Assembly: GCA_965279315.1 (NCBI GenBank)
Contig: OZ257145.1
Location: 1,933,536-1,997,535 of the forward strand
Length of the DNA: 64,000 nt
Source of the DNA: Alphaproteobacteria bacterium
GTDB lineage: Bacteria > Pseudomonadota > Alphaproteobacteria > Micavibrionales > UBA2020
Reading direction: 5' to 3'
Position numbers and translations under genes: made by a program. Below the pieces are notes generated by a model. That model had not been told where the DNA came from and ran no database searches. It worked only from the letters and a program-made list of their open reading frames with translations. Below, piece after piece: positions 3,483-42,788 of the stretch (positions are counted from its first letter, which is position 1; every line of letters begins with the position of its first letter).

Positions 3483-3980
3483 ATGACGGGAAAAAACAAA
3501 AGCCAGGGCAAGAAAGACCCGAATAACAAGACCGTCGCCATGAACCGCAAGGCGCGGTTCACGTATTTTATCGAGGACACGATGGAGGCCGGCATCATGC
3601 TGACCGGCACCGAAGTGAAATCGCTCCGCACCGGACAGGCGAGCATCGCCGAAAGCTACGCCGCCGTGCAGGGCTCGGAAATCTTCCTCGTCAACGCCCA
3701 TATCCCCGAATACACGAAATCAAACGCCAAGTGGCAGCATGAAGTGCGCCGCGCGCGGAAATTGCTGCTGCACAAAGGCCAGATGAGCAAGCTGATCGGC
3801 GCGGTGCAGCGCAAAGGCACCACGCTGATACCCTTGTCGGTCTATTTCAACGATCGCGGGATTGCGAAAGTCGAACTCGGCATCGCCACCGGCAAAAAAC
3901 AGCACGACAAGCGCCAGACCGAAAAAGACCGCGACTGGCAGCGCGAAAAAGGCCGCGTGATGAGCGACAAGAACGCTTAA
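3483..3980 (+). CDS. smpB: SsrA-binding protein SmpB
   Basis: [71 protein letters not shown]. Canonical SmpB sequence. Confidence 0.95.
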
Positions 3981-4002
3981 TTCATAAACCTCTATCTCTT
4001 CC

Positions 4003-4028
4003 GTAACCCCGGCCTTCGCCGGGCTTAC
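4003..4028. repeat. Single REP-type hairpin (half element), probable smpB terminator
   Basis: GTAACCCCGGCCTTCGCCGGGCTTAC lies about 20 nt after the smpB stop. It has the same stem family as the long REP subfamily ends at 41906 and 44940. Confidence 0.5.
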
Positions 4029-4844
4029 ATGCTGCTCTTATCAAATCGCCTCCATTCGTGTAAATTTGTGTTCATTCGTGGGGAAAATACTACCCCAGCG
4101 CGGGAGCCCTCCATGCCCTTCATCGTCACCGATTTCGACACCAACGACATTATCGATATGGAGGGCGATGTCGATGCGCGGTTTGCGCCGTGTTCGACGT
4201 TCAAGATCCCGCTCGCCCTGATGGGCTTTGATGCCAATATCCTCCATGACGGGCAGGGGCCGCTTTGGCATTACAAGCCGGAATACGATGAGCGCGCGCC
4301 TGTCATGATCGACGCATGGCGCAAGAGTTTCGACCCCGCCGGATGGCTGAAGGAATCCGCGATCTGGTATTCGCAGGTGCTGGCGGAAAAACTGGGCGCA
4401 GAGAAATTCGCGAAATATGTGGCGGCGTTCGACTACGGCAACGGCGATATTTCCGGCGATGCGGGCAAGAACAACGGCCTGACCAACAGCTGGCTTTCCA
4501 GCAGCTTGCAAATCTCGCCGCGCGAACAGATTGGTTTCCTGCGCCGGATGCTGGCGGGCAGGTTGCCGATCTCGGAATTCGCGCTGGGCAAAACCGCGCC
4601 GCTGCTCTTTGCAGGTGAAATCGGCGGCGGGCGTTTGTTCGGCAAGACCGGCACCGGCTTCGCCGACCGCGCCGCCAAAAAACAGCGCGGCTGGTATATC
4701 GGCTGGCTGGAACGCGGCCCGCGCAAGTTCATTTACGCAGGTCTCTTTGATTACGCAGGCCCCGACTTCGCGGGAAAATACGCGCGCGGTATCATGACCG
4801 ATGTGCTGAACCGGCTCTGTAACAGCAGTGATGTGCCGGGGTAA
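4029..4844 (+). CDS. Class D (OXA-type) beta-lactamase-fold / BlaR-sensor-like protein
   Basis: Motifs in the correct order: STFK (active-site Ser-x-x-Lys), SAIWYSQ (SxV-like), FDYGNGD (YGN), WLSSSLQISPREQIGFL, and KTGTG. The start may be 4029 or Met29 at 4113. Confidence 0.75.
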   Translation: MLLLSNRLHSCKFVFIRGENTTPAREPSMPFIVTDFDTNDIIDMEGDVDARFAPCSTFKIPLALMGFDANILHDGQGPLWHYKPEYDERAPVMIDAWRKSFDPAGWLKESAIWYSQVLAEKLGAEKFAKYVAAFDYGNGDISGDAGKNNGLTNSWLSSSLQISPREQIGFLRRMLAGRLPISEFALGKTAPLLFAGEIGGGRLFGKTGTGFADRAAKKQRGWYIGWLERGPRKFIYAGLFDYAGPDFAGKYARGIMTDVLNRLCNSSDVPG

Positions 4845-4856
4845 AGATCAACATAC

Positions 4857-4936
4857 GTCATCCCCGCGAAAGCGGGGATCTCGGGGTGTGACAGGGCGCA
4901 TAAAGCCAATGGGATCCCCGCTTTCGCGGGGATGAC
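4857..4936. repeat. REP/MITE-like double-hairpin palindromic element (80 bp)
   Basis: GTCATCCCCGCGAAAGCGGGGATC, a 32-nt spacer, then GATCCCCGCTTTCGCGGGGATGAC. It lies between convergent gene ends. The spacer core TTATGCGCCCTG is shared, in inverted orientation, with the copy at 14775. Confidence 0.85.
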
Positions 4937-4943
4937 ACCTGCA

Positions 4944-5423
4944 TTAACCTCTGTCAAAAGCTTCTTTCAGCTTCTTCGCATCCAGCTTGACCATCTGCCA
5001 CATCGCCTCGTTCATGGCTTGCCGCTTTTTCTTGTTCTTGCTGGTCTGCCATTTCATGATCTGGTCGGGGAAAACCTGCCAGCGGATGCCGTATTTATCA
5101 ATCACCCAGCCGCATTGCACCGGCTGGCCGCCGCCACTGGAAAGTTTTTTCCAGTATGTGTCGATCTCGCGCTGCGTCTTGCACGGCACGGTCATGGAGA
5201 ATGAATCGTTGAACTCTTTGGGAACGAAGCCATTCAGCAGCATGATTTTCTGCCCGCGCACGGTCAGCTCGATCGTCAGCACAGAGCCTTCTTTGACACC
5301 CATCGGGTTCGGCCCCCAATAGGATGTCGCGCCGATCTTGGTGTCCTTGAAAACGGATTTGTAAAATTTGGCCATCTCCGACGCCTTGTCGTTCGACCAG
5401 ATGCAGATGTAGTTTTTTGCCAT
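4944..5423 (-). CDS. VOC/glyoxalase-superfamily protein (PhnB-like, 3-demethylubiquinone-9 3-methyltransferase-domain family)
   Basis: ORF 4944..5600 trimmed to Met60 (MAKNYICIWSND..). It contains KFYKSVFKD, LTIELTVRGQKIMLLNG, CKTQREIDTYWKKLS and QCGWVIDKYGIRWQV. The upstream part of the ORF runs into a repeat element. Confidence 0.7.
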   Translation of the reverse strand: MAKNYICIWSNDKASEMAKFYKSVFKDTKIGATSYWGPNPMGVKEGSVLTIELTVRGQKIMLLNGFVPKEFNDSFSMTVPCKTQREIDTYWKKLSSGGGQPVQCGWVIDKYGIRWQVFPDQIMKWQTSKNKKKRQAMNEAMWQMVKLDAKKLKEAFDRG

Positions 5424-5506
5424 GCGTGAATTCTCCCTTGGGGTGAAGTGTAGCGCGCGGCTGTAATGCTGTATAGGGGCGACGCGATATTGAAGCGGGC
5501 GTGCTT

Positions 5507-5653
5507 CCCTTCTCCTTTGGGAGAAGGAGGGGCCCGTCGCTCTTTCTTGCGGCGGGAGGATGAGGGTACTCCGTCGGCGTCGGGCTTTCACGTTGACCAA
5601 GTACCCTCACCTCTGTCGCTTCGCGACATCTCCTCTCCCAAAAGGAGAGGAGA
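5507..5653. repeat. Type-2 structured repeat (two inverted half-units)
   Basis: The left half contains hairpin CTTCTCC-TTTG-GGAGAAG followed by GAGGATGAGGGTAC. The right half is GTACCCTCACCTCTGTCGCTTCGCGACA followed by hairpin TCTCCTCTCC-CAAAA-GGAGAGGAGA. The right half is nearly identical (reverse complement) to 11112..11170. Confidence 0.8.
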
Positions 5654-5660
5654 AAAAGTA

Positions 5661-5692
5661 AACGGCCCGCCTCGGGAAGAAGGCGGGCCGTT
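5661..5692 (-). terminator. Rho-independent terminator of recA
   Basis: AACGGCCCGCC / GGCGGGCCGTT form an 11-bp stem. On the minus strand it is followed by TACTTTTTCT, about 60 nt after the recA stop. Confidence 0.7.
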
Positions 5693-5750
5693 CGGGGTAA
5701 GAAGAAAGCAATGGCTACGTCTGTTGTGTGTGAGCGGGGGTTATCAGGGG

Positions 5751-6896
<1,146 letters not shown>

Positions 6897-7059
6897 GTGA
6901 TTTATCCTCTTTTTCGATCGTTGATCAATCTCAAACTCGGTCTTACCCCGGTTCGATCTATAAATCCACTGTACCTATTTCGTTCTCATGGCACAAGAAC
7001 AAAATAGAACAAAAACGATACAAATTTTCTTGACAAACGATTTCAATGGGATAGGTGGG

Positions 7060-8949
7060 CTATTCCGAGAACACGAAGTTGAAACAAGGGCTTATTTCAA
7101 GCGTGTCGCCCGTTTGCACATTGCGCCATTTTCCGGGCGTTTCTTCCGTCAGGTCGCCTTGCCGGATGCCGGGTCCGAACAGGATGAAGTCTTCGAAGGG
7201 ATACGGCCATTGATAATCGATGCGCTGGCGCGTCGCGCGGGAATCCGTATCCGTGATTTTTTCGCGTTGCAGGGCGACATCGCGCTTGTCGCCGTTTCGC
7301 GTTTCGATGCCAAGCATCAGGCGGGTGCCCGCCTCGCCGCGGATCAGCGCAACGACATCGGCAAGCGCGGGCGGCAGCGGTTCGCCGTTGATGGCGACGA
7401 CGCGGTCGCCTGCCGCAATGCCCGCTTTTTCAGCAGGGGAGCCGGGCATCGTGCCAGCCGACACAACGCCGCCGCCGCCGTCCTGGGCAAGGCGCAGGCC
7501 GATGCCGCTGAAAACAGTCGCGGGAGAGGGCAGCAGCCGGAATATATGCTCGTCGCGTTTTGATCCGGGGTCGCGGCAGGTTTTGTACAGCGTCTTGCTG
7601 CCCCAGTTTTTGTTAAGGATAAGGAGCGAGGGGGTGGCGTTCGTATCAAGCCTCTCTGTGCCCTTGCCCGCAAGAATGACCTGCAAGCCGTCGCTGCCGA
7701 TTTTCAGGCTGCCGTTGCCCGTGCAAATGGTATCGACGCTGTTGCTGAAATGTAATCCGCTTTGTCGGTTCACTTCTTCCTGTGCTTCGCAATTATAGTC
7801 TTTTTTCACAACTTGCAGCGGCAAAGATGCCGGATCAAGCGGCAAGCGGCGCAGGGTGCGTTTCAGTGAATTTTCGTTGATTATCCTGACGCCTTGCCCT
7901 GTCAGGAAATCCGGCGGCAGTTTTCGGGCCTGAACCATTGTCGCGACGAGGGTGAGCGCGTCTTTTATCTGCTGGTTTTCCGTGGCGGCTGCCCAGTCGT
8001 TATATATGCGCGCGCTTTCCGCGTAATCGGGCGTGTAGGGTTGTGGCTGTTCTTCGCGCGGCAGCTTCGGCTTCGGCATATCTTTTTCGCGGGCGTCGCG
8101 GGCGGCCACCTGCGCGGCGTAATCATTGTCGCAGGTATCGGATATCCTGACATCGGCTTCGGCAGTGATCGCGACGCGGCGGGTCTTGCCGTCGGCGTCG
8201 GTTGCGGTCCAGATATACGCGCCGGGCGCGGTGTCGAATTTCTTTTTCAGGTCGTCGGATATGGGCGCGTCGTCTTTTTTCCAGGCAAGGCAGCGATCGA
8301 GAAGCACGCTGTCGAGCGCGGGATCGAGGCGTAGCTCCATGAAATCGTCTTCAAGATCGTTCAGCCCCGGCGCCATCACGCGCACGTCGTTGCGGCGGCC
8401 GTCGGCGAGGTTGAAAACCTCCACGCTGACCAGCAGAGATCCATCCAGGTATAAAAGCGGTTTCCAGCCTTTGACGGTATCGCGGCCGCCATTACCGTCG
8501 AAATGAATGCCATGCGCCGACGGTATGCTGCGCGCATTCGCGAAGGTGACAGGTTTTTGGCGGTTCAGCTGCGCGTGCAGCGCGGCCGAGGTTCTTTCCG
8601 CCGCGATGCGGTTGTCATCGACCGCGCGCTTTAGCGTGGATAATTCATTGCGCAGCTGCGCGACGGAATCGCGCAGGTCCTGCGCCTCGGCCGCCTGGGT
8701 CTGTGCCATCCCGGCCGTTTCGCGGGCCAGCGCCCGCGCGGCCTGCGCCGTATCATCGCGCGCCTGTGCGATGTCGCGCTTCAAAAGGTCGCGGTCGGCC
8801 TGCGCGCGGTTTTGGGCGATGTCGATGTTTTCAATCGTGCGCGTGTTCAGCATCACCGACACCGCAAGGCAGGCGATGACGAACCAGCACAGCGCGGACA
8901 AAACGGCGAGGGGATTTTTAAAAAACGGATGCATGTAAAAGTATAACAC
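7060..8949 (-). CDS. Membrane-anchored coiled-coil protein with a C-terminal PDZ domain
   Basis: N-terminal TM helix (LAVLSALCWFVIACLAVSVML), then a coiled-coil stretch (AQADRDLLKRDIAQARDDTAQAARALA..). A PDZ signature follows: GIGLRLAQDGGGGVVSAGTMPGSPAEKAGIAAGDRVVAINGEPL. Confidence 0.7.
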   Translation of the reverse strand: MLYFYMHPFFKNPLAVLSALCWFVIACLAVSVMLNTRTIENIDIAQNRAQADRDLLKRDIAQARDDTAQAARALARETAGMAQTQAAEAQDLRDSVAQLRNELSTLKRAVDDNRIAAERTSAALHAQLNRQKPVTFANARSIPSAHGIHFDGNGGRDTVKGWKPLLYLDGSLLVSVEVFNLADGRRNDVRVMAPGLNDLEDDFMELRLDPALDSVLLDRCLAWKKDDAPISDDLKKKFDTAPGAYIWTATDADGKTRRVAITAEADVRISDTCDNDYAAQVAARDAREKDMPKPKLPREEQPQPYTPDYAESARIYNDWAAATENQQIKDALTLVATMVQARKLPPDFLTGQGVRIINENSLKRTLRRLPLDPASLPLQVVKKDYNCEAQEEVNRQSGLHFSNSVDTICTGNGSLKIGSDGLQVILAGKGTERLDTNATPSLLILNKNWGSKTLYKTCRDPGSKRDEHIFRLLPSPATVFSGIGLRLAQDGGGGVVSAGTMPGSPAEKAGIAAGDRVVAINGEPLPPALADVVALIRGEAGTRLMLGIETRNGDKRDVALQREKITDTDSRATRQRIDYQWPYPFEDFILFGPGIRQGDLTEETPGKWRNVQTGDTLEISPCFNFVFSE

Positions 8950-9000
8950 CCAATCGTTTAGAAACCGGTAAAGCCGGCTTAAACCATGGATATCATGCTT

Positions 9001-9828
9001 TTAATATACGGGCGGCGATGCGGGCGCGGGGCCTGCGTTCTGGCCGAGGGTTTTGAGGATGTCGGTCAAAACGCCGCTTGCGCCGATGCGGAATTTATCG
9101 ACGCTGATCCAGTTTTTGCCCATCATGCTTTCTGTGAGCGCGATGTATTGCGCGCCGTCGCCGACGGTTTTCACGCCGCCGGAAATTTTCACGCCCGCGT
9201 CGAAACCGGTGTCGCGGATCGATTGCAGCATCGTGGCCGCAGCCTCCAGCGATGCGCCGCCGGTTGCGTGTTTGCCCGTCGATGTCTTTAAAAAATCCGC
9301 GCCCGCATCGAGCGCGAGGACGGATGCCGCGTATAAATCTTTATAATCGGTGAAAACGGAACTCTCCAAAATCACTTTCAGTTTTACGCCCGCGCCGCAT
9401 TCGGCGCGGCAAACGCGCAGCAATTCCGCTGCTTTTTCCACGTTTCCGTTTAAAAATGAATCATGGTCGAGCACGATGTCGATTTCGTTCGCGCCGGATT
9501 TGATCGCGGCGCGCGTGTCGGCCGCCGTTTTTTCCGGCGTACCTGCGCCCGACGGAAAGTTGATGACGGTCGCGCGGTTGATGCCTTTTTGCGCGGTCGC
9601 GTTGAAAGTTTGCGTGAGAAACTGCGGATAAACGCACGTCGCCGCAACATGCCCCAATTTTCCCTGGTCCGCTTTTGCGATCAGCGTGTCGATGACGGCG
9701 GGGGTGTCGGTGTCATTCAAACTGGTGAGGTCGAGGCTGTGAAAAGTTGTCAGCGCGGCGGTTTCGGAAGCGGGGGCCGCTTTTGCTTTTTCGACAAGAC
9801 CGGCGAGGGTGCCGGGAAAATTTTTCAT
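9001..9828 (-). CDS. deoC: Deoxyribose-phosphate aldolase
   Basis: ORF trimmed to Met23 (MKNFPG..). It contains ATVINFPSG, EIDIVL, LKVILES, the Schiff-base region FLKTSTGK, and VKISGGVKT. Confidence 0.85.
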   Translation of the reverse strand: MKNFPGTLAGLVEKAKAAPASETAALTTFHSLDLTSLNDTDTPAVIDTLIAKADQGKLGHVAATCVYPQFLTQTFNATAQKGINRATVINFPSGAGTPEKTAADTRAAIKSGANEIDIVLDHDSFLNGNVEKAAELLRVCRAECGAGVKLKVILESSVFTDYKDLYAASVLALDAGADFLKTSTGKHATGGASLEAAATMLQSIRDTGFDAGVKISGGVKTVGDGAQYIALTESMMGKNWISVDKFRIGASGVLTDILKTLGQNAGPAPASPPVY

Positions 9829-10397
9829 CCGCAAAATATCCTTTTTTCTGGTTTGTGCCTTATCCTCGCATGATGCAGGGTTATGGTCAAACAAGATTGA
9901 GATTATATAATAATTACAATGGCTTAAAATATACTCAAACCCTGTTTAAGTGTTTCGCCGGAAATCGGCGGCGCGATTTTTTAACCCGTTGATATATAAC
10001 GATTCTAAAAAGCCAAAATGCAAAATCATGATTCCAAAGCCCTTTGAATAATAACGGTTTTTTCGAATGCGCTATGTGCAAAAACCCCCGTAAAACCCCC
10101 CGTAAAACGGTGTCGGAAGGCCATGTCCGAAAATGGCTGGTTGCACCTATCAAGAGGGTGTTTATTTGACATAAACCACCGACTCGGGTAGTCTTTACTC
10201 CATGCCGAGTGCATCTACCAGGCCGGTTTTACCAGTGGCTCTGTTTCCCCGCCTGTTCTCCGCACGACCTGCAAAACAGCCATGTGTTGCCGCTCTTTAA
10301 AAAGCGGTTGAGGCAGGTCATATCGGAGAAAAATCATGGACACCAATCCATCTATATCACGACGCGCGCAATCCCTCGTCACGGGAGAGCAGGCATC

Positions 10398-11081
10398 ATG
10401 AGAACCGACGTCGAATACACGAATGGCGAAGACGAATACAGCGTCATGATCGTCTGGCACAAATGGCCGGATGAAAAAACGGTCACGGCGCTTGCCGCGA
10501 CATATCAGGGCGAGGATCTGGTGGCGCGGCTTGCCGCGCTTGGCAAGATCAAAACCATCGAGCGCACCCGCGACGGCGGCCGCAGCGACGGCCCGGGCGG
10601 CGAGCCCGCCGTGCAACGCTGGCACGATAACGGCCAGCCGGAGACGGAAGAACACTGGCGCAAGGGCAAGCAGCATGACGCGGCGGACGGCCGCCCCGCC
10701 AAACGCAGCTACACGCAAGACGGCGTGCTGCGCCATCAGTCGCGCTATAACAAGGGCATCCCCGAAGACAGCGCGAGCGGCGATCCCGCCGTGCAGATGT
10801 TCAACGCCGACGGCACGCGCTACCGCATCGACCGTTTCCGCCGCGGCAAGCACAATGACGGCGCAGACGGATCGCCCGCCCAGCAATTTTTCAGCGCCGC
10901 CGGCCAGCTGCAGCGCAGCGAACGCATGGTCGACGGCAAAATGCAGGACACCCCCGACGGCCGCCCCGCGCTCGAGGAATTCAACGCCGCCGGTCTGCGC
11001 ATCCACGCGGAATGCTATACAAATGACGAGCGCACGAAAGTCATCCCCGCATCCCCCACGCCCGGCAGGCAATGCCCATGA
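10398..11081 (+). CDS. Tandem-repeat protein (five exact 30-aa periods, G-x-P-A .. G-K-x-x-D)
   Basis: ORF 10209..11081 trimmed to Met64, with RBS GGGAGAG 8 nt upstream. GEPA/GRPA/GDPA/GSPA/GRPA recur every 30 aa. The frame has high GC3 and a protein-like composition, unlike the two overlapping ORFs (10215..11072 minus, 10471..11289 plus). Confidence 0.65.
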   Translation: MRTDVEYTNGEDEYSVMIVWHKWPDEKTVTALAATYQGEDLVARLAALGKIKTIERTRDGGRSDGPGGEPAVQRWHDNGQPETEEHWRKGKQHDAADGRPAKRSYTQDGVLRHQSRYNKGIPEDSASGDPAVQMFNADGTRYRIDRFRRGKHNDGADGSPAQQFFSAAGQLQRSERMVDGKMQDTPDGRPALEEFNAAGLRIHAECYTNDERTKVIPASPTPGRQCP

Positions 11082-11111
11082 AGCATTTCAAGATTTAAAT
11101 TATCCCGCCTT

Positions 11112-11170
11112 TCTCCTCTCCTTTGGGAGAGGAGATGTCGCGTCAGCGACAGAGGTGAGGGTACTTGGTC
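11112..11170. repeat. Type-2 repeat, single half-unit
   Basis: TCTCCTCTCCTTTGGGAGAGGAGATGTCGCGTCAGCGACAGAGGTGAGGGTACTTGGTC. This is the reverse complement of 5595..5653 with only a few differences. Confidence 0.85.
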
Positions 11171-11346
11171 GGCATACGCGCCATGATATCGCGCATGTGT
11201 CCCCGTATATCCCGCTGTGTCACATGATGCGGCACATCCACCGCGACTACCCTTGTCTTTCGCGCCATGCGGCGCGTATAAATGAATAATGATAGTCACT
11301 CGATATAAGTGTGTGTCACCAGATATTCTTAAGTAATTAGGTAAAA

Positions 11347-12042
11347 ATGAAAAAATTTGGAATTATATTCTCGATTCTGATGGTTGTGTGTATCGTCTAC
11401 ACGTTTTTTATTATGAATGATGGCGAAAAATCAGGTTATCCATCCCAAGGTGGGCACGTTAATGCTCTTTCATATTTTAATACAGTAACCGTAGATGTCT
11501 TTATTGTTGAGCTTTCTCCGCATAGCGCTCCGGATATTAACGGCAGGCCTGAGAAAAGCAATCAAGCGGATAGTCTATCTTTTAAAAATGCGGTTATCGA
11601 AGCTGCGCGAGAAAAGTTCGGCACTGATAATATTTTAATTGGTGGATATGAAGATCCTTATACGTTTTTATCTAATCCGTTCAATCTCGCCATTAAATTA
11701 TACGTTTCTCGTGATTTGAGTGAAGACAGGGTTAATTACCAGCTAAAAATCATCCGCTCGAATTTGTTTTCAATATTTCTGCGTGGACTGGCATCCGAAA
11801 AAGCGATGTCTGAATACAATAGCGTATCCCCAGCTCTTGCGAATGAGATATTGAAAACTGAAAATCCCTTCGTTTATTGGGAAAAAAATGCTTATTTTCG
11901 GACGCAAACATATGATCCCAGGAAAATTGATAATGAAGATTGGCATGAGTTGTCCAAATTAGTTGTCGAAAAAATGGATCCCAAATTTCTAGAAACCCGC
12001 AACCTAGAAAACGCAATTTTGAATAAAGCCGCGCAGAAGTAG
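11347..12042 (+). CDS. Hypothetical membrane-anchored protein (AT-rich island)
   Basis: N-terminal TM helix FGIIFSILMVVCIVYTFFIM. Codon usage is AT-rich, unlike the flanking genes. No family recognised. Confidence 0.6.
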   Translation: MKKFGIIFSILMVVCIVYTFFIMNDGEKSGYPSQGGHVNALSYFNTVTVDVFIVELSPHSAPDINGRPEKSNQADSLSFKNAVIEAAREKFGTDNILIGGYEDPYTFLSNPFNLAIKLYVSRDLSEDRVNYQLKIIRSNLFSIFLRGLASEKAMSEYNSVSPALANEILKTENPFVYWEKNAYFRTQTYDPRKIDNEDWHELSKLVVEKMDPKFLETRNLENAILNKAAQK

Positions 12043-12099
12043 AGGCATTATATCCACAGATTATAATATTTTTTTTTGCTAGCCGGGAGGAGATATTCC

Positions 12100-12834
12100 T
12101 TAAAATGTTTCTTTTTTAAACTCATACATGCCGAGGTTCTCATACCACTTACTACCGCTATGATTGCCTCCGCCAAGATTTTTACCACCTATCGTTTTCA
12201 ACCATGGAAGATATTTTTCAATACCAAAAGTGACAGGCTCGTCGGTTGTCTCAAGAACGACTGATTTTATCGCGACGCCCGCACCGAAAGCTTCTTCAAA
12301 CGATACAACAGGAATTCCGGGATGTTTTTCTTGAAAGCTCTCCATATCTGCTGGAAACCTGACATTTTCAATCGTCACTGGATTGTTTATATCGCGAAAA
12401 CGCGCAAAATATGGGTACTGCCCTGTGGTTAAAGTGGCTTTAGCGTTTTTAAGCTTGCTGTAATGCTTTATTCCTTTGGCGGTTAACGGTTCATCGAACG
12501 GAAAAACATCAAAAACGATAGTTTTGGCATAGTCTCCATGCGTAAGCAGGAAAAGCAAGCCACGCTTTCCGAGGTCTATAACAACGGCCTCGCCTATGAA
12601 ATCTATACTTGGGCTCATTTCGGGCAATAGTTTAATGCCATTCAGCACGCGGACTTCACGCACAGCGGAGCCTGTCTTCAAACCTTCCGGAGTCTCCACC
12701 GTTACGGTCAGTTTGTAACGCCATTTACTGCCTGAGGCCATATCCTGCATATACGACATGCAGCCGGAAAATATGAAGACTCCCAGCACAGCGAGACAAA
12801 TATTTCTGAATTTTTTGAAGTTATCTTCGGTCAT
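12100..12834 (-). CDS. Hypothetical lipoprotein, island paralog A
   Basis: Lipobox ..LGVFIFSGC. It shares blocks with 12902..13666: WRYKLTVTVETPEGLKTGSAVREV vs WHYRMTVSVDTPEGIRTGSVVRKV, GEAVVIDLGKRGLLF vs GEAAIVDLGERGVLF, and VVSFEEAFGAGVAIKSVVLETTDEPVT..YLPWL vs IISFEQAFGSNVKISQITIEITKDPVT..FLPWL. Confidence 0.7.
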   Translation of the reverse strand: MTEDNFKKFRNICLAVLGVFIFSGCMSYMQDMASGSKWRYKLTVTVETPEGLKTGSAVREVRVLNGIKLLPEMSPSIDFIGEAVVIDLGKRGLLFLLTHGDYAKTIVFDVFPFDEPLTAKGIKHYSKLKNAKATLTTGQYPYFARFRDINNPVTIENVRFPADMESFQEKHPGIPVVSFEEAFGAGVAIKSVVLETTDEPVTFGIEKYLPWLKTIGGKNLGGGNHSGSKWYENLGMYEFKKETF

Positions 12835-12901
12835 AGAATTTCTCCCTCGATATCGCCCGGATTTGCCGGATATAACAAATGGGTATCTCCAACGGCCATT
12901 T

Positions 12902-13666
12902 TTAAAAATTCCCGTATGAAAAATCAGTTCCGTCTATATAAAGCCCCGTCGGATCGATGTCAGGTTTCGCAGGATCGCTTCCGAACGGACCCTTCTCTTG
13001 GCTTCTCTTTGCCAGCCAAGGCAAAAAATCGTCTATTTTTCTTGTGACTGGATCTTTGGTAATTTCGATCGTAATTTGTGAAATCTTGACATTGCTTCCG
13101 AATGCTTGTTCGAAAGAAATAATGTCGCCTTTCGGCATCGCTTGTTTCAATACATCTATAGCGGGCTTGTCCGCAACGCGCTGTATGGTTTTCGGGTCAT
13201 CCAGGTTACGGAAGCGTAGAAATTCAGGGTATAAACCCTGCTTTAGCTGAACGCTTCCCTGATCGGGAACAGCATCTATCCTCAGGCCAGAAGACCCTTC
13301 TTTATCAAATGCCCTTACTAATAAATCGGCACATGAATAGCCTCCCGTCGAAGCAAACAAAACACCACGTTCGCCGAGATCGACGATAGCTGCCTCGCCT
13401 GCGCATTCAAGATCGACGCCCGAGCCCCCGCCGCCCGCTGTGTCTCCACCGTAAATCACTTTACGAACAACAGATCCAGTCCTGATCCCTTCGGGCGTAT
13501 CTACACTCACTGTCATACGATAATGCCATATTTTTTTAGAAGCCTCCGAAAAAGGGTCATCTATAAATTGGCTTATGCGGTGAACTGGACGCCACAAAAT
13601 AAAAAGGCATATTATAAACAAAAAGATAAATTTCTTTTTTATTCTCACTTGTCTCTCCATGGCCAT
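12902..13666 (-). CDS. Hypothetical signal-anchored protein, island paralog B
   Basis: N-terminal hydrophobic helix FIFLFIICLFILW. It is a paralog of 12100..12834 (blocks listed under that feature). Confidence 0.7.
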   Translation of the reverse strand: MAMERQVRIKKKFIFLFIICLFILWRPVHRISQFIDDPFSEASKKIWHYRMTVSVDTPEGIRTGSVVRKVIYGGDTAGGGGSGVDLECAGEAAIVDLGERGVLFASTGGYSCADLLVRAFDKEGSSGLRIDAVPDQGSVQLKQGLYPEFLRFRNLDDPKTIQRVADKPAIDVLKQAMPKGDIISFEQAFGSNVKISQITIEITKDPVTRKIDDFLPWLAKRSQEKGPFGSDPAKPDIDPTGLYIDGTDFSYGNF

Positions 13667-13948
13667 GCTTCATTTATTATATCCCGCCTGTATCCAGCTT
13701 GAAAGACGAAGATGCATGCGGCACAGCGCACGATTTGATTTGAATAATTGCGGATATAGGGGGTATGCCACCAGAAATTTCCACCATCCCCCAGCCATCC
13801 ACAGCGGCAGCAACTCTGGCATATAATTTGTCAGTGAATCCGGGTGCGGAAGAGAGAGATTAAGCGCGAAACGTTTTTTGTTGGCATGGAAGTCTTCATG
13901 TGGCATGTTTCAACAACGAAAAAACAAACACATCAGAGGGGAATATCC

Positions 13949-14719
13949 ATGAAATCCACGCTTCGCGCGCTTGCCGTCACTGCCGTTCTTGCAACCCTGA
14001 TGGGCGCTGCGCCTGCGCTGGCCGATTGCGGCGGGCTGCCGGGGCAGGACGCGCTGAAAACCGCGCTGACCGATGCGCGCAAGGCGAATAACGGCGGCCT
14101 CAACCTTGATATGTGGGCGACGGTCGTTGACCGCGCGGGCATCGTTTGCGCGGTTGCGTATTCGGGTGACACCGTCGATGCGCAATGGCCGGGCAGCCGC
14201 GCGATTTCGGCGCAGAAGGCGAACACCGCGAACGCATTCAGCCTCAAGGGCCTCGCGCTCTCGACCGCGAACCTTTATTCGGCGACGCAGCCGGGCGGTT
14301 CGCTGTTCGGTTTGCAGGAAAGCAACCCCGTCAACGTGAAGGCGGCCTATGCCGGTGACACCGCCGATTACGGCACGGCGGCGGATGCGCTGAAGGGCGA
14401 AAAGATCGGCGGCGTGAACGTGTTCGGCGGTGGGCTTGCATTGTATAACGACAAGGGCGAGATTTTGGGCGGCCTCGGCGTGTCGGGCGACACGTCCTGC
14501 GCGGACCACAACATCGCATGGCGCGCGCGCAACGCGCTGAAGCTGGACTTCGTGCCGGCGGGCGTGTCGAAAGACAAGAACGACAACATCATCTATGACG
14601 TGAAATCAGGCCACAGCGCCGGCGGCTTCGGCCACCCCACCTGCGGCGGCAAGGAAGCGGATGTCGCAAAGACACTCCCTGCTTCGTCGAAAGTGGCTGC
14701 ACCTGCGAAAGCGGAGTGA
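13949..14719 (+). CDS. Secreted GlcG/HbpS-like (DUF336, heme-binding/degrading family) protein
   Basis: ORF trimmed to Met36, with RBS AGAGGGGA. Signal peptide MKSTLRALAVTAVLATLMGAAPALA. It contains GIVCAVAYSGD, SRAISAQKANTANAFS, GGLALY and ILGGLGVSGDTSCADHNIAWRA. Confidence 0.6.
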   Translation: MKSTLRALAVTAVLATLMGAAPALADCGGLPGQDALKTALTDARKANNGGLNLDMWATVVDRAGIVCAVAYSGDTVDAQWPGSRAISAQKANTANAFSLKGLALSTANLYSATQPGGSLFGLQESNPVNVKAAYAGDTADYGTAADALKGEKIGGVNVFGGGLALYNDKGEILGGLGVSGDTSCADHNIAWRARNALKLDFVPAGVSKDKNDNIIYDVKSGHSAGGFGHPTCGGKEADVAKTLPASSKVAAPAKAE

Positions 14720-14741
14720 GATTTTCTTTCTCGAAAAAAAA

Positions 14742-14769
14742 GGCTCTCCGCGAGGAGAGCCTTTTTTTT
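14742..14769 (+). terminator. Rho-independent terminator
   Basis: GGCTCTCC-GCGA-GGAGAGCC followed by TTTTTTTT, 23 nt after the stop at 14719. Confidence 0.8.
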
Positions 14770-14774
14770 ATGCC

Positions 14775-14854
14775 GTCGTCCCCGCGAAAGCGGGGATCCC
14801 GGCGGCCTTATGCGCCCTGCCTATCCATGAGATCCCCGCTTTCGCGGGGATGAC
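14775..14854. repeat. REP/MITE-like double-hairpin element (80 bp)
   Basis: GTCGTCCCCGCGAAAGCGGGGATC, a 32-nt spacer, then GATCCCCGCTTTCGCGGGGATGAC. It is inverted relative to the copy at 4857. Confidence 0.85.
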
Positions 14855-14866
14855 GGGTGAGGGGGA

Positions 14867-16087
14867 TTAGCGGCGCGGCGCGGGCGCGGCGGATTTGCGG
14901 CGGGCGAGGGATTCCTCGATTGCGTCGATGGCGGCGTTGAACAGGTCGGCCAGCGTCACGGGCTGCGGGCGGCGGCGCTTCACGCCGTCTTCGCGCGCGG
15001 CCTCCATCTCGTCCAGTTTCTTGCGGGCGAGGCGCAGGGCCTTGCCGTCCAGCGGCTTGTGCTTTTTGTCGGTCTCTTCGCGGATGCGGTCGAGGATCTC
15101 GCCGCGTTTTTTCAGGCCGGTGAATTTCAGCTCCGGCTCGTTCTCCAGCGCGGCGCGGAACAGTATCATCTGGTCATCGCGGTGCGTGACCTTGGTCAGC
15201 GCGATTTCGGCGAAGCTGACGGCCTGGTAATCCTGCAGGAAAACATCGCGCAGCTGGCGCGCGACCGCGGTATCGGGTTTTGCGAACAGTTCGGGCAGCA
15301 TGGCGGCGAATTCCACGATGCGCTGGTCATCCAGCAGCGTGGCGAGTCCGGTATACAGCACCACGCGCTGCTGCAGGTCGCGGGCGATCTTTTTCATCTC
15401 CTCCGCATGGTCGGCGGCGGCGAGCTCCGCGATGCGTTTCGGGTTCTGGTAGCTGTGCATTTCCGATGCGGGCGCGGTTTCGGATGCAAGCGTATTGCCC
15501 ATCCATTCCATCAGGCTGTCGACGTAATAGTGCCGTTCGCTTTGCAGCGCGGTGATGTCGTTCTGCGTATCGTGCCATTCCTGACGCTTGCGCTGGCGGG
15601 CGGCGTGGGGCGTTTCGACCGCTTCGGTCTTCTTTTCCAGCCAGCCGGGTTTCCACCACGGTGTTTTCGGCGCGGGTGCTTCGGGCTCCGGCGCGACGAT
15701 GGGGGCGGGGATCAAGCCGTCGGGCAGCGCGGGCGGCGCAGGCGGCGCGTCGAGGCGCGGCGGGAACAGCGGGTGGATTTTCGCAAGCGGGCTATCCGCG
15801 CCAAATGCCGCCCGCGCGCGCTCACCGAGGCCGCCGGTCGCCAGCACGATGCCCTGCACGTCGCCCAGCGTCGCCGCCATGAAAATCGCGTCACGCTCCA
15901 GCCCATAATCGATCAGGCGGGTGAGCCAGTGATGGGCGATGAAGACGAGGCTTTCCTGCTGCGCCAGCCATTCGCGCTTATGCGCCGCGTTCTCGTCCAG
16001 CGCGGCCATATAACCCGCAAGCGCGTTGCGGATATCGGCAAGCGCGGCGGCGTCTTGGGGCAGGGGTGCAGCGGGGGTGGCAGGCAT
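14867..16087 (-). CDS. Hypothetical protein (406 aa; Pro/Ala-rich linker and charged helical C-terminal half)
   Basis: Long ORF with high GC3 and a balanced composition. The antisense ORF 15059..16108 is Arg/Gly-rich. No family recognised. Confidence 0.65.
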   Translation of the reverse strand: MPATPAAPLPQDAAALADIRNALAGYMAALDENAAHKREWLAQQESLVFIAHHWLTRLIDYGLERDAIFMAATLGDVQGIVLATGGLGERARAAFGADSPLAKIHPLFPPRLDAPPAPPALPDGLIPAPIVAPEPEAPAPKTPWWKPGWLEKKTEAVETPHAARQRKRQEWHDTQNDITALQSERHYYVDSLMEWMGNTLASETAPASEMHSYQNPKRIAELAAADHAEEMKKIARDLQQRVVLYTGLATLLDDQRIVEFAAMLPELFAKPDTAVARQLRDVFLQDYQAVSFAEIALTKVTHRDDQMILFRAALENEPELKFTGLKKRGEILDRIREETDKKHKPLDGKALRLARKKLDEMEAAREDGVKRRRPQPVTLADLFNAAIDAIEESLARRKSAAPAPRR

Positions 16088-16177
16088 GGCGATCCGGTTC
16101 GGGGTTGATACCGGCGCAGATTAGCAGGCGTACACATCGTTATGCAAATTAAATGCGTGACTGGTAAAGACCTGAAT

Positions 16178-16345
16178 TTATTTGGTATTTGCCTGATTGT
16201 TGAGCAGCGGGCCGCTGATAATGCCCAGATCCGCCGCGATCATGGCTTCGTATTCGACAATCTCGTCCTCGGGGATTTGCGTTGGATGGGGGTGCGGGGC
16301 GGCGGCCTGCTTCGGGCGGTCGATCTTGATGTGCATTGTAGGCAT
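16178..16345 (-). CDS. Small hypothetical protein (55 aa)
   Basis: ORF trimmed to the Met that follows a strong RBS (GCGGAGGATTGCC-ATG). The sequence is MPTMHIKIDRPKQ..EDEIVEYEAMIAADLGIISGPLL. It lies 90 nt upstream of the 406-aa gene on the same strand. Confidence 0.35.
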   Translation of the reverse strand: MPTMHIKIDRPKQAAAPHPHPTQIPEDEIVEYEAMIAADLGIISGPLLNNQANTK

Positions 16346-32258: not shown

Positions 32259-32408
32259 ATGCGTTCCGTCACCACCGCCGTCCTGTTCAGCCTTCTCCTG
32301 TCGTCCTGCGCAAGCGGTGGCGGCCCGTCGCGTACCGATGGTTATGGCGCGCTTGCCGCAGCCGTGATTTTGGGCGCGGGCGTCGCGGTCTTCGCGCATA
32401 GCCGCTGA
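32259..32408 (+). CDS. Small lipoprotein (49 aa), below the ORF-track size cutoff
   Basis: RBS GGAG lies 7 nt upstream. The protein is MRSVTTAVLFSLLLSSCASGGGPSRTDGYGALAAAVILGAGVAVFAHSR, with lipobox LSSC. A TTGACA-17-CATACT promoter-like pair lies about 35-65 nt upstream, and a strong terminator follows. Confidence 0.55.
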   Translation: MRSVTTAVLFSLLLSSCASGGGPSRTDGYGALAAAVILGAGVAVFAHSR

Positions 32409-32437
32409 TTGTTTTGAGCGACCGAACAACGAAAAAA

Positions 32438-32465
32438 CCGGCGACCCTGTGGTCGCCGGTTTTTT
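32438..32465 (+). terminator. Rho-independent terminator
   Basis: CCGGCGACC-CTGT-GGTCGCCGG followed by TTTTTT. Confidence 0.85.
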
Positions 32466-32548
32466 CGTGGCCTAATCGGCTCTAAGCGCAGTCAGTTTCC
32501 TAAGCATTGGGATTTGTGACACGGCGGCCCCATGGGTATAATGCAATC

Positions 32549-32983
32549 ATGGCCGACGATAGAAACATTACAATTGCGAAGCAGGCATTTTCCGAGATAC
32601 GGACTAGGTTTTCTCACTTGCGAGTGATTGAAGACACAAATGTAAATGTTGATCTTTCTATAACATTTCCAATTCAGCCCGGTTTAAAACATCAGGTGAA
32701 TTTAAATTTACAGAGTGATGAGCTCCACTTCTCTGTGTTCAATTTTTTATTGGAGTGGTTTCCGTGCACAGCCCCTGATGTGGTCCAAGATTACATCGCG
32801 GCAGTCTCCGGCTTTTTATCTGGAGAATATAGAATTTTGGAAGTCTATGTAGGAGATAAATGCTTAAAGGCAAAACTGCAATCACCTGAGAAATCAGGTT
32901 GGAAGACAATAGGAACTTGGAGCACAGGTTGGCGCATACTACTATTTACAAAAAAGGTTTATACTATCGTTCGTAATGTTTAA
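32549..32983 (+). CDS. Hypothetical protein (AT-rich orphan)
   Basis: ORF 32507..32983 with a likely start at Met15. Its AT-rich codon usage contrasts with its neighbours. No family recognised. Confidence 0.5.
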   Translation: MADDRNITIAKQAFSEIRTRFSHLRVIEDTNVNVDLSITFPIQPGLKHQVNLNLQSDELHFSVFNFLLEWFPCTAPDVVQDYIAAVSGFLSGEYRILEVYVGDKCLKAKLQSPEKSGWKTIGTWSTGWRILLFTKKVYTIVRNV

Positions 32984-33003
32984 CGTCGTATGTCCAATTT
33001 TCG

Positions 33004-34620
33004 TTACAGGTTGATCTTGCGGTTCGGCTTTTTGTTGAACACGGGCGCGTCCTGCGGCTTGTCGTCATTCGCGACATCCGCCGCCGCATCGGGCGAGGGC
33101 GCAATCGCGGCCTTCAGGTCGTCAACCGCTTCGCCCATCGCTTTTTTCTGCGCTTCGGCGGCGATACGTTCTGCCGCCAGCCGTTCTTTTTCCTGCTGAC
33201 GTTCATAGGCGGTCTGGCGCTCTTTCGCTTCGCGTTCTTCGCGGGCGACCGGGTCTTCGAACCATTCGCGGCGTTTGCGCGCCAGCAGCTTGTCCGCGCC
33301 CACGCCAAGGCCGCCACCCGCCGCCATGCCCAGCATGGTGATCAGGATCACGTTCAGCCATTTGAAGGTATGCACATCGAAACCGTTTTCGTAGTTCTGG
33401 TCGTACATCGACCGCGCGGTCTTCATGATGTCGGAGCGCAGTTCGTTCGCGTTGCCCGGTTTTTCATGCAGCACGACATCGACGTAATTGCGGATCATGC
33501 GCTCCAGCTCCGGCGCTTTCGCGGCGGAAAAATGGATGCCGTCGGTCACGCCATGCGCCGCCTCGATGGTGCGCGCGGTGCGGGTTTCGGCAGTTTCGGC
33601 CAGCTGGTATTCGGCGGGGCCGCTATCCGACCTGGAATAGGTGCGGTAATGTTCGTTATGCGCCGTGCGCAGGGCCTGTTGCAGCGCGCCCGACAGGCTC
33701 GTCAGCGCCTGATATTCCCCCGCCGCCTGCGGCGCGTATTTCAGGTAGTTAGAGCCGCTCGCCCAGGTATTGGCGAATTTCAGGTATTCATCCGCGGTCG
33801 GCACATGTTCCTTCAATTCGCGCGCCATGCTCTGGCGGATCGCTTCCTGGTTTTCGCCATGCGTCATCTTGGCGATGTAGAGGCGTTCCTGCACGGAGAG
33901 GTCGGGGTTGCGCTCCATGAAATTCTGCAGCAGGCGCGCGGCCTGTTGGGCCTGCGCCTGATTGAAGGTGTAGCTGTGCCAGCTGTAGTCGTACACTTCT
34001 TCGGTATGGTGCGTTGTCGTGCATTTGCCGTTGCTGCAGCTTTCGGTCGTGTAATGGCGCGTATGCGTCACGTCGCGGCGGTGATAGCTCCATGAATCAT
34101 CAAACGCCGACTTGATGGCGGGCAGGGCGCGGTTGGCGTCTTCCAGCTTGGCGACCGATTCAAGCGCGGCGCGGGAATCCTGCGGCATCGCTTCGGTGTA
34201 TTCGCTGATCAGCGCGTGTTTTTTCAAAGACGCGTCGATGCGCGTCTGCAGTTCATGCGCGAAAACGGCATGGCTCTTGTTGATGTGCAGGGCGATGTTG
34301 TTGCTCTCGAACACTTTCATCGTGATGTCGTTGTTCGCGGCATAGAACCTTGTGAGGGCGGGCACGGGCTGCGATGCCTTGTTAAAATCCGCGCTGATCT
34401 GCTCGATCTCGGAAAAGGCCAACGGAATTTCGCCGGCCTTGGATGCGTAATGCCTTGTCGACAAACCGCCCGCCAGCACAAGGCCCAGCGTCACGCCGAT
34501 CCAGATTTCGGCCGAAGTGTTGAACAGTTTATGGCGCGACCATTTAAACGCGCGCTTGTACCACGGGTCGGTCGAGGGCTGCAGCAGGCTGTTGTCGTTG
34601 CGCGATTTGAAAATGGACAT
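33004..34620 (-). CDS. Hypothetical membrane protein with a C-terminal charged coiled-coil tail
   Basis: TM helix near the N-terminus (IWIGVTLGLVLAGGL) and a second near residue 430 (WLNVILITMLGMAAGGGLGVGA). The tail is REEREAKERQTAYERQQEKERLAAERIAAEAQKKA. Confidence 0.7.
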   Translation of the reverse strand: MSIFKSRNDNSLLQPSTDPWYKRAFKWSRHKLFNTSAEIWIGVTLGLVLAGGLSTRHYASKAGEIPLAFSEIEQISADFNKASQPVPALTRFYAANNDITMKVFESNNIALHINKSHAVFAHELQTRIDASLKKHALISEYTEAMPQDSRAALESVAKLEDANRALPAIKSAFDDSWSYHRRDVTHTRHYTTESCSNGKCTTTHHTEEVYDYSWHSYTFNQAQAQQAARLLQNFMERNPDLSVQERLYIAKMTHGENQEAIRQSMARELKEHVPTADEYLKFANTWASGSNYLKYAPQAAGEYQALTSLSGALQQALRTAHNEHYRTYSRSDSGPAEYQLAETAETRTARTIEAAHGVTDGIHFSAAKAPELERMIRNYVDVVLHEKPGNANELRSDIMKTARSMYDQNYENGFDVHTFKWLNVILITMLGMAAGGGLGVGADKLLARKRREWFEDPVAREEREAKERQTAYERQQEKERLAAERIAAEAQKKAMGEAVDDLKAAIAPSPDAAADVANDDKPQDAPVFNKKPNRKINL

Positions 34621-42029: not shown

Positions 42030-42788
42030 TTATTTGGTCGCGGTCAGGAAATAATTCACATCCATATCCGTCGCGCTCAATGAAAACGCGCGGTCGAGCG
42101 GGTTGAAGACCAGGCCGCGCACATCGGTCACTTCCAGCCCGTGTTCCTCGATATGCTTCGCCAGTTCCGACGGCTTCAGGAATTTTTTCCAGTCATGGGT
42201 GCCGGCGGGAACCCAGCGCAGGATATATTCGGCGGCGATGATGCCGAGCGCGTAGGATTTCGGCGTGCGGTTGAGGGTGGACATGATCAGCATGCCGCCG
42301 GGGCGCAGGATGGCGCAGAGGGCGCGCATGAATTCCTCCACATCCGCCACATGCTCCACAATTTCAAGCGCGGTCACGACATCATATTGCGCGCCCTTGG
42401 CGGCCAATGCCTCGACGCTCGTGGCGAGGTAGTTGATTTTCAGCCCGTGGGCTTCTGCATGGGCTTTGGCCACCTTGATGTTTTCCTTGCCCGCATCCAC
42501 GCCCGTCACATCCGCGCCCATGCGGCACAGCGGTTCGGTCACGATGCCGCCGCCGCAGCCGATATCGGCGATCTTAAGGGCTTGTAAACTTTTGACAGTG
42601 TCGGGCAGGTCGAAATGTTCCGACAGCATCCGGCGGATATATTCCATGCGCACAGGGTTGAGGCGGTGGAGGGGGCGCATCGGGCCCGATTCATCCCACC
42701 ATTTATCGCCCAGAGAATCGAACTGCGCGATCTCGGCGGCATCGATGGTGGATTTTGCGGCGGGTTTTTTCAGATTTTTTTTGGTCAT
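42030..42788 (-). CDS. ubiG: Ubiquinone biosynthesis O-methyltransferase
   Basis: EIAQFDSLGDKWWDESGPMRPLHRLNPVRMEYI..IADIGCGGGIVTEPL..YDVVTALEIVEHV..GGMLIMSTLNRT. Confidence 0.92.
   Translation of the reverse strand: MTKKNLKKPAAKSTIDAAEIAQFDSLGDKWWDESGPMRPLHRLNPVRMEYIRRMLSEHFDLPDTVKSLQALKIADIGCGGGIVTEPLCRMGADVTGVDAGKENIKVAKAHAEAHGLKINYLATSVEALAAKGAQYDVVTALEIVEHVADVEEFMRALCAILRPGGMLIMSTLNRTPKSYALGIIAAEYILRWVPAGTHDWKKFLKPSELAKHIEEHGLEVTDVRGLVFNPLDRAFSLSATDMDVNYFLTATK

Follow-up and report, generated by a model that had tools for sequence, protein, structure and literature searches.

The 64,000-nt stretch of DNA analysed here (the window; Alphaproteobacteria bacterium, Micavibrionales, contig OZ257145.1, positions 1,933,536 to 1,997,535) carries an AT-rich island of three genes, which we call orf1, parA and parB, between deoC and an hbpS-like gene. 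We consider it somewhat probable (about 0.55) that all three are orphan immunity-like genes whose cognate toxins are absent from the locus. The observations behind this reading are the composition of the island, its variability between relatives, the family membership of its genes, their export signals, and the gene linkage and polymorphic arrays found in other genomes. From these we infer that the proteins bind and neutralise enzymes, that the RTX enzymes linked to their relatives are antibacterial, and that the genes are orphans beyond the 64 kb as well. The AT-rich stretch fills a variable deoC-hbpS hotspot and is made of two independent modules, parB-parA and orf1, which comprise the following genes:

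11347..12042, + strand: orf1, 231 residues, with an N-terminal membrane anchor (open reading frame; context of its relatives in contigs L009 and L010)
12100..12834, - strand: parA, 244 residues, predicted lipoprotein with lipobox FSGC and, in the structural model, a beta-rich periplasmic domain (open reading frame; homologues)
12902..13666, - strand: parB, 254 residues, signal-anchored, of the same family as parA (similarity to parA; family profile)

All three open reading frames (ORFs) lie where a first-pass annotation of this DNA had placed them. That annotation did not give their strands, from which it follows that orf1 converges on parA.

We propose that parB and parA (module 1) encode periplasm-facing partners, membrane-anchored or lipoprotein, of lipase heads of the class-3 type; in other genomes a gene of this family is translationally coupled to such a head, usually fused to an RTX region that is exported by type I secretion. 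In its close relatives orf1 (module 2) takes the same position before a giant serralysin-like RTX protein. The partners would bind and block an enzyme head that arrives at the periplasmic face of the cell's membranes, on the model of Tli for lipases of type VI secretion systems (T6SS) and of Inh/AprI for serralysins, and the orphan genes would protect against lipase-RTX or protease-RTX producers in the community.

The parA/parB family and its lipase partners

The first-pass annotation had called parA and parB paralogues on the strength of shared sequence blocks. They are: their products are 34% identical over 180 residues (E=3e-37), and the alignment includes the blocks it quoted. Both keep all invariant residues of the family (11 of 11 in parB, which matches the family hidden Markov model (HMM) with E=1e-60). 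The parA product is 50-53% and the parB product 43-46% identical to foreign homologues, so that each is closer to these than to the other; the pair is therefore not a recent duplication but an assembly of two specificities. The nearest relatives of parB are Micavibrio-type copies, one of which (L046) precedes a lipase-RTX gene product of at least 3,329 residues. With a spacer of 67 nt between them, parA and parB are probably in one operon.

A search of 5.8 billion protein clusters gave at least 571 relatives, with a best non-self match of 49-53% identity; the named sources were mostly alphaproteobacterial metagenome-assembled genomes (MAGs), including Rhodospirillales and Micavibrio, and no name or Pfam domain appeared among the family matches listed. 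parA and parB themselves had no match in Pfam, NCBIfam, PADLOC or PHROG, and a literature search turned up no paper on this family or on immunity to RTX lipases. In species-representative genomes we located 79 loci, mostly in Micavibrio and other alphaproteobacterial MAGs and some in Bdellovibrionales or Pseudobdellovibrionaceae MAGs. The cultured organisms among them were Sphingopyxis sp. LK2115, Sphingobium fluviale, Roseospira goensis and R. navarrensis, and several genomes carried three or four family loci each.

In the contigs viewed first, the family gene ran into the 5' end of a gene labelled 'Phospholipase-like'. We called ORFs in 91 sequences and built HMMs of the family and of the lipase head for counting. 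Among 116 family ORFs, 51 were followed on the same strand by a lipase-like ORF, at a distance of -52 to +30 nt and mostly of -3 to +7 nt, with stop and start codons typically overlapping. Nineteen of these 51 partners were at least 280 residues long and 32 were N-terminal fragments of 63-252 residues; 14 partners had 1,256-3,329 residues and 4-40 GGxGxD RTX motifs. The long heads matched Pfam Lipase_3 (17/19) and Mbeg1-like (12/19), all 19 contained the nucleophile elbow GHSxG, and the motif TGHSxGGGLAG was invariant. The best solved relative of the head profile was a T6SS lipase effector of Enterobacter cloacae (7UBZ_B, E=1.9e-4). This effector, Tle, is neutralised in the periplasm by Tli, a lipoprotein built of ankyrin repeats (PMC11470151).

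Export signals can be read in all three island genes: parA has the lipobox FSGC, and parB and orf1 have an N-terminal hydrophobic anchor. Across the parA/parB family, a hydrophobic N-terminal segment stood just ahead of the conserved domain in 88 of 88 N-termini (14-15 hydrophobic residues out of 15 among the 40 listed), and 15 of the 88 had a lipobox. Family proteins are therefore predicted to face the periplasm. An AlphaFold (AF2) model of the parA product (pLDDT 93.2, pTM 0.83) consists of an N-terminal helix followed by a beta-rich domain. Its best Foldseek matches in the PDB were LolA-like proteins at E 0.03 and a TM score below 0.2, none reaching E<=0.001, and the family profile found nothing among PDB sequences.

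Could these be ordinary, fast-evolving envelope proteins with a housekeeping function, which neighbour lipases through shared residence in variable regions? The lack of a functional annotation anywhere we searched, the faint resemblance to the LolA-like lipoprotein-carrier fold and the many copies without a lipase neighbour would agree with this. However, immediate same-strand coupling to one domain family in 51 of 116 cases goes far beyond co-residence, and multiple copies per genome, AT bias and location on integrative and conjugative elements (ICEs) and plasmids are traits of accessory conflict genes. We consider a housekeeping role improbable, and less likely than immunity.

Tandem copies of family genes were present in 21 sequences, one of which (L026) resembles a single split gene. 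In all five arrays with a long and apparently complete lipase gene, this gene was the last unit; it encoded an RTX protein in L019, L036, L071 and L081 and an RTX-less protein of 529 residues in L044. The units ahead of the last had truncated heads or none. Within an array the family proteins were 41-79% and the heads 45-87% identical. The family gene was full length both beside truncated heads (median 240 residues) and alone (median 243 residues), and 65 of the 116 family genes had no adjacent lipase. Five toxin-less tandem pairs were found besides that of the window (L037, L056, L062, L070 and the Mesorhizobium plasmid pMLb), as well as lone copies on Rhizobium and Sphingomonas plasmids. Judged by gene order, these arrays follow the plan of polymorphic toxin-immunity loci in reverse, with the variable toxin domain at the N-terminus and the partner gene upstream. 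An N-terminal variable domain suits an RTX protein, which has its secretion signal at the C-terminus.

The proposed system is seen most clearly in a Bdellovibrionales MAG (L036, positions 4600-16209), where genes for a TolC-like protein, an HlyB-type protein with a C39 domain and HlyD lie directly upstream of an array that reads family gene, lipase fragment, family gene, full lipase-RTX gene. Other pairs lie among mobility genes. In Sphingopyxis sp. LK2115 (L047) and Sphingobium fluviale CHR27 (L083), the family gene and its lipase-RTX gene follow genes for a type IV coupling protein (T4CP), NikA/MobC and a relaxase, and LuxR-type and ArdC genes lie beyond the pair, a conserved cargo position on a conjugative element. 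T4CP and relaxase genes also lie upstream of the pair in a Rhodospirillales MAG (L002), and genes for type II/IV secretion ATPases flank another locus (L048). The T4CP and relaxase context agrees with the report that three Micavibrio RTX genes reside on ICEs (PMC3189940). The GC content of family genes was on average 5.7 percentage points below that of the host locus; in 78 of 94 comparisons it was the lower of the two.

No lipase-like or RTX ORF is present within the 64-kb window, and thus parA and parB are intact, diverged homologues of toxin-linked genes that stand there without a toxin. The first-pass annotation had likened the island to an orphan immunity array. The homologues lend this guess real weight: 51 of 116 lie directly upstream of lipase-like heads, and orphan singletons and tandem pairs are common.

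More tentatively, parA and parB could be strays of a polymorphic system that has not been described, in which RTX proteins exported by a type I secretion system (T1SS) carry swappable N-terminal lipase heads, each paired with a membrane-anchored immunity protein of a new fold that is encoded upstream; together with orf1 and its serralysin-RTX partner the island would then be an 'anti-RTX' defence island. Old units of head plus immunity gene would pile up upstream of the active gene, as a mirror image of the orphan modules of CDI/Rhs loci. The pairs would ride on conjugative elements and in the genomes of predators (Micavibrio, Bdellovibrio-like), and non-producers, this alphaproteobacterium among them, would collect orphan immunities.

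orf1 and a second RTX enzyme

Relatives of orf1 are few, three among the 5.8 billion clusters and four among 1.84 billion representatives. In contigs L009 and L010, an orf1 that is 88% identical lies at most 50 nt upstream of a gene for an RTX protein longer than 2,271-2,575 residues, whose N-terminal domain is serralysin-like, with an HExxH motif and E values of ~2e-12 to protease C and alkaline protease. DNA homology between these contigs and the window is limited to 11339-12089. The sequence GGGAGGAG near 12080-12099 is the counterpart of the ribosome-binding site that serves the RTX gene missing here; L009 reads aagccgagagaATG(RTX). In a third contig, L011, orf1 is frameshifted; its homology with the window also ends at 12089, and gagagaATG, where the lost RTX gene began, is still present and is followed by unrelated sequence. 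Given the junction at 12089, the RTX gene is missing at the window locus. We infer from this gene context that orf1 is the upstream partner of a different RTX enzyme, present in the window without that enzyme, and thus an orphan of the inhibitor or immunity type.

A relationship of orf1 to the parA family was considered and rejected (profile comparison, probability 9%). Structure prediction for orf1, based on three sequences, gave a pLDDT of 41. A protein of 1,217 residues (P0269) contains eight repeated stretches similar to residues 101-166 of orf1, and the core of orf1 may thus be a repeatable domain.

Comparison with known systems

The closest parallel for module 1 is the Tle-Tli pair of E. 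cloacae (Tle, proposed 'Tle6', PDB 7UBZ/9CYS). The relatives of parA and parB share with it a GxSxG alpha/beta-hydrolase lipase head, and the protein encoded next to it is predicted, like Tli, to reach the periplasm, either as a lipoprotein or held by a membrane anchor. Extra immunity genes, in tandem or as orphans, are known from Tle-Tli systems. The partners themselves differ, as E. cloacae Tli is an all-helical ankyrin protein (PMC11470151) whereas the modelled parA product is beta-rich, and we found no homology to Tli. In the lipase-linked family the partner gene lies upstream, and in the window there is no effector; a lipase effector beside the immunity-type gene was seen in the 51 of 116 homologous loci elsewhere. 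No VgrG, PAAR or Hcp/T6SS gene was present among the flanking genes checked, which covered part of the 79 loci (Pfam tables of four and selected large ORFs in seven more). These flanks held T1SS genes (L036), conjugation genes (L002, L047, L083), a type II/IV secretion ATPase (L048) or housekeeping genes. By this parallel, parA and parB are predicted to neutralise a cognate lipase.

FrpD-FrpC of Neisseria meningitidis and Smlt3025-Smlt3024 of Stenotrophomonas maltophilia likewise have a lipoprotein gene upstream of a gene of the RTX N-terminal type. The FrpD-type lipoprotein binds the RTX N-terminal domain, and FrpD has been suggested to act in immunity (PMC6759196, PMC5233953). A lipoprotein-type gene immediately upstream of an RTX gene was found in the relatives and not in the window. 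FrpD and Smlt3025 have no sequence similarity to parA or parB and were absent from the top Foldseek matches, and the RTX head in the family loci is a lipase, unlike the FrpC/Smlt3024-type domain.

For orf1 the comparison is with the serralysin inhibitors Inh, AprI and SmaPI, which protect the periplasm. Like these, orf1 encodes an exported protein beside a T1SS serralysin-type RTX metalloprotease in L009 and L010, the protease being absent from the window, and the inhibitor complexes 1JIW and 1SMP were among the matches of the RTX N-terminal domain of L009. In contrast to the beta-barrel Inh family, the orf1 product has 231 residues and a membrane anchor and does not match the Inh Pfam family, and its partner in L009 exceeds 2,575 residues, as against ~460-480 residues for the matched serralysin chains.

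Orphan immunity clusters are known from the acquired interbacterial defence islands of Bacteroidales and from Vibrio, Salmonella and CDI/Rhs loci. The island shares with them several diverged immunity-type genes without toxins, a foreign composition and a strain-variable locus. It differs in that the presumed toxins are RTX enzymes, T1SS-exported or carried on ICEs, instead of effectors of T6SS or CDI systems, and in that no recombinase was found; the logic of orientation also runs the other way, as the displaced heads are N-terminal and the immunity gene comes before them.

Several points weigh against an immunity function. Gene adjacency fits an accessory role equally well. T1SS substrates are thought to bypass the periplasm, and self-protection is not obviously needed. 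RTX lipases are putative attackers of bacteria, and the RTX proteins of Micavibrio have been proposed to serve predation or adhesion (PMC3189940). The confident parA model had no Foldseek match among solved immunity proteins in the PDB, and the plasmid copies inspected are labelled 'hypothetical protein' in RefSeq. A cognate lipase-RTX gene may lie elsewhere in the genome, outside the 64 kb analysed. The case for orf1 rests on two near-identical contigs (L009 and L010).

The main rival explanation is that family proteins are accessory factors of the RTX enzyme, FrpD-like helpers of docking, folding or activation, and that the genes in the window are leftovers or serve an RTX protein encoded elsewhere. 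The gene order of frpD-frpC, with a lipoprotein gene directly upstream of the RTX gene, is matched; FrpD binds the FrpC N-terminus with a dissociation constant of ~0.2 nM (PMC5233953, PMC6759196); translational coupling suits a stoichiometric partner; and E. cloacae Tli both neutralises and activates its lipase (PMC11470151). An accessory role explains adjacency but not the persistence of intact orphans: family genes are intact beside truncated, dead heads (32 cases) or without a lipase (65 cases), including copies on plasmids of non-producers. Moreover, the diverged tandem arrays suggest many specificities, no similarity to FrpD was seen by sequence or Foldseek, and a periplasmic helper would have no obvious access to a T1SS substrate. 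A lipase-specific foldase (Lif), an all-helical periplasmic chaperone, does not fit either, as there was no match to the Lif domain in Pfam and the parA model is beta-rich. We therefore regard the accessory role as unlikely and favour immunity because of the linkage, the export signals, the intact partners beside decayed toxins, the diverged arrays, the mobility of the pairs and the likeness of the head to a proven antibacterial lipase.

The island itself is modest, probably an orphan immunity-type cluster in a hotspot; what it exposes is an uncharacterised family and a probable RTX-lipase toxin system of unusual architecture. If the immunity reading is correct, the family, which has at least 571 members and lacks both a Pfam domain and a solved relative, would be a new family of immunity proteins. 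RTX lipases exported by type I secretion, a route seldom thought of in bacterial warfare, would be polymorphic weapons that act among bacteria or between predator and prey. The system would then have a simple genomic signature, in which a lipase head follows a family gene and truncated heads precede the full-length gene, and the AT-rich island would be a probable defence stockpile in a recombination hotspot. As the pair lies on a conjugative element in the cultured Sphingopyxis sp. LK2115 and Sphingobium fluviale CHR27, the idea is directly testable.

The variable site between deoC and hbpS

The other features of the site are:

10142..13898, no strand: variable segment relative to contig L171, with deoC on one side and the hbpS-like gene on the other (blastn, L171 against the window)
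10209..11081, + strand: GC-rich repeat-protein gene, in the variable segment and outside its AT-rich part (ORF; 90-nt periodic repeats)
11104..11170, + strand: double hairpin resembling repetitive extragenic palindromic (REP) elements, the 'type-2 repeat' of the first-pass annotation (sequence; second copy near 5602)
11206..11329, + strand: promoter-like leader segment 'P', which holds the left motif copies (conserved in L171 and L011)
12080..12099, + strand: junction, end of the homology with the orf1-RTX operon (blastn end points, 12089)
13678..13725, + strand: right motif copies, in the upstream region of parB (motif search)
13949..14719, + strand: gene for a GlcG/HbpS-like haem-binding protein, conserved right flank, outside the island (PF03928 in homologues)

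The drop in GC content that had marked the island in the first-pass annotation was evident in sliding-window and codon-position analyses. GC fell from ~0.6 to 0.35-0.47 over ~11.25-13.9 kb (300-nt sliding windows), which is the sole long AT-rich trough in the 64 kb at 600-nt resolution (mean 0.582, sd 0.048). GC at third codon positions was 0.36 in orf1, 0.45 in parA and 0.42 in parB, as against 0.66-0.83 in ten other genes of the window, immediate neighbours included. A shorter AT-rich trough lies at 32400-33200 (GC 0.43-0.46 in two overlapping 600-nt sliding windows). The absence of a mobility gene was likewise upheld: scans of the window for ORFs, tRNAs and phage families found no integrase, transposase, tRNA or phage family, and no Rfam family or PADLOC defence model fitted.

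The test for an empty site is based on contigs L171 and L011, which were found by homologue searches; a metagenome scan with the right-flank protein gave relatives of at most 74% identity without synteny, and a further contig (L173, a 90% FliR cluster) ends before the island. The flanks of L171 are 83-89% identical to the window at the DNA level and include recA, a PDZ-protein gene, deoC and hbpS on one contig; the HbpS-like protein has a 94%-identical copy in L171/L172. Homology between L171 and the window stops at 10141 and restarts at 13899. Between deoC and hbpS, L171 carries instead (3729-7748) three genes unrelated to those of the window, for proteins of 122 residues (no obvious signal sequence), 362 residues (multi-pass membrane protein) and 526 residues (faint HEAT-repeat match). 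The repeat-protein gene at 10209-11081 encodes 30-residue repeats, with a faint match to MORN_2 (E=0.077) as its sole hit; L171 has no such gene at this site, which puts it in the variable segment despite its native-like composition.

A segment of the window at 11211-11329 recurs in L171 (4443-4562, inverted) with 80% identity ahead of the 122-residue gene, and in L011 (132-244) with 75% identity ahead of the frameshifted orf1. L011 is 90.6% identical to L171, and its orf1 pseudogene (within 1-1040) fills the same slot: with the conserved leader on one side and a common 3' flank ('atatctggggacactatacttaattagc') on the other, the pseudogene and the 122-residue gene are alternative inserts. By its position, 11206-11329 is a promoter-like leader that heads alternative cargo genes.

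This bears on the claim of the first-pass annotation that the island is a single cassette bracketed by att-like direct repeats. The motifs exist, in the same order on both flanks: TATATCCCGCTGT (11206-11218) and ATGCGGCACA (11227-11236) on the left, TATATCCCGCCTGT (13678-13691) and ATGCGGCACA (13716-13725) on the right. They are rare, as TATATCCCGC occurs in the window only at 11206 and 13678 (expected 0.02) and ATGCGGCACA at 11227, 13716 and 42520 (expected 0.27). This third exact copy of ATGCGGCACA (42520-42529) is far from the island. Two collinear shared 10-mers were found in 0.07% of Markov-shuffled pairs of the intergenic regions, a statistic computed on motifs that had been picked post hoc. 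The idea of a longer direct repeat of 120 nt, of which the motifs would be the tips, was rejected, since a gapped alignment of the flanks was no better than controls (score 29 against 21.6 +/- 3.4, reached by 34 of 1000 shuffles; reverse-complement control 28).

One recent cassette inserted by site-specific recombination, with the TATATCCCGC...ATGCGGCACA repeats as att-like scars, would account for the shared 10-mers (P ~7e-4), the strongly atypical composition and the absence of the three genes from the same site in L171. The alignment with L171 confirmed the absence but placed the breakpoints at 10141 and 13899, not at the motifs of 11206-13725. The left motif lies inside the ~120-nt segment that heads other cargo in L171 and L011 and hence belongs to the promoter-like leader. 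The right motif region (13678-13725) has no counterpart in L171 and lies in the parB upstream region, which has a TATAAT on the - strand at 13677-13682. orf1 (~11219-12089) and parA-parB differ in their distribution, with a sharp junction at 12089 in three independent comparisons, and the site has no integrase, transposase or tRNA; the repeats do not coincide with its boundaries against L171. We consider a single cassette very unlikely and, again, less likely than immunity genes in two modules.

Horizontal acquisition as such, which the first-pass annotation had also proposed, agrees with the foreign-type composition and with the absence from the site in L171, but it need not be recent. In L001, a more distant relative (amino acid identities of 84% for RecA, 68% for the histidine kinase and 61% for FlhB), two family genes, oriented as in the window, occupy the interval from the kinase gene to recA; one has a 307-residue lipase and the other a 141-residue fragment, at a GC of 0.47 in surroundings of 0.585. 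As low GC is a trait of the family, L001 makes long residence possible, and the family may be an old tenant of this neighbourhood whose content turns over, rather than a recent arrival.

The repeat that abuts the left edge in the first-pass annotation is real and is a REP-like hairpin (11104-11170). Its 3' word has a second copy at 5602-5613 on the - strand, within an element at ~5560-5613, and a similar element lies in L171 at 7640-7700, just upstream of hbpS and in the opposite orientation. It gave a sub-threshold match to Rfam, and may join in rearrangements of the hotspot. Related words (CACCAGATATTC, GAGGAGATATTC and CACCAGAAATTT) stand at the three module junctions (11317-11328, 12087-12098 and 13769-13780), and GATATCTGGGG is repeated in L171 after its cassette. 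As a cassette-junction or recombination signal, however, CACCAGATATTC-like words are unsupported, with 58 matches across the window at three mismatches. A second palindromic family has one copy 3' of the hbpS-like gene (14773-14856) and recurs near 4.9 kb (4857-4936); its 26-nt arms are 96% complementary, and it is conserved in L171 at 8631-8711.

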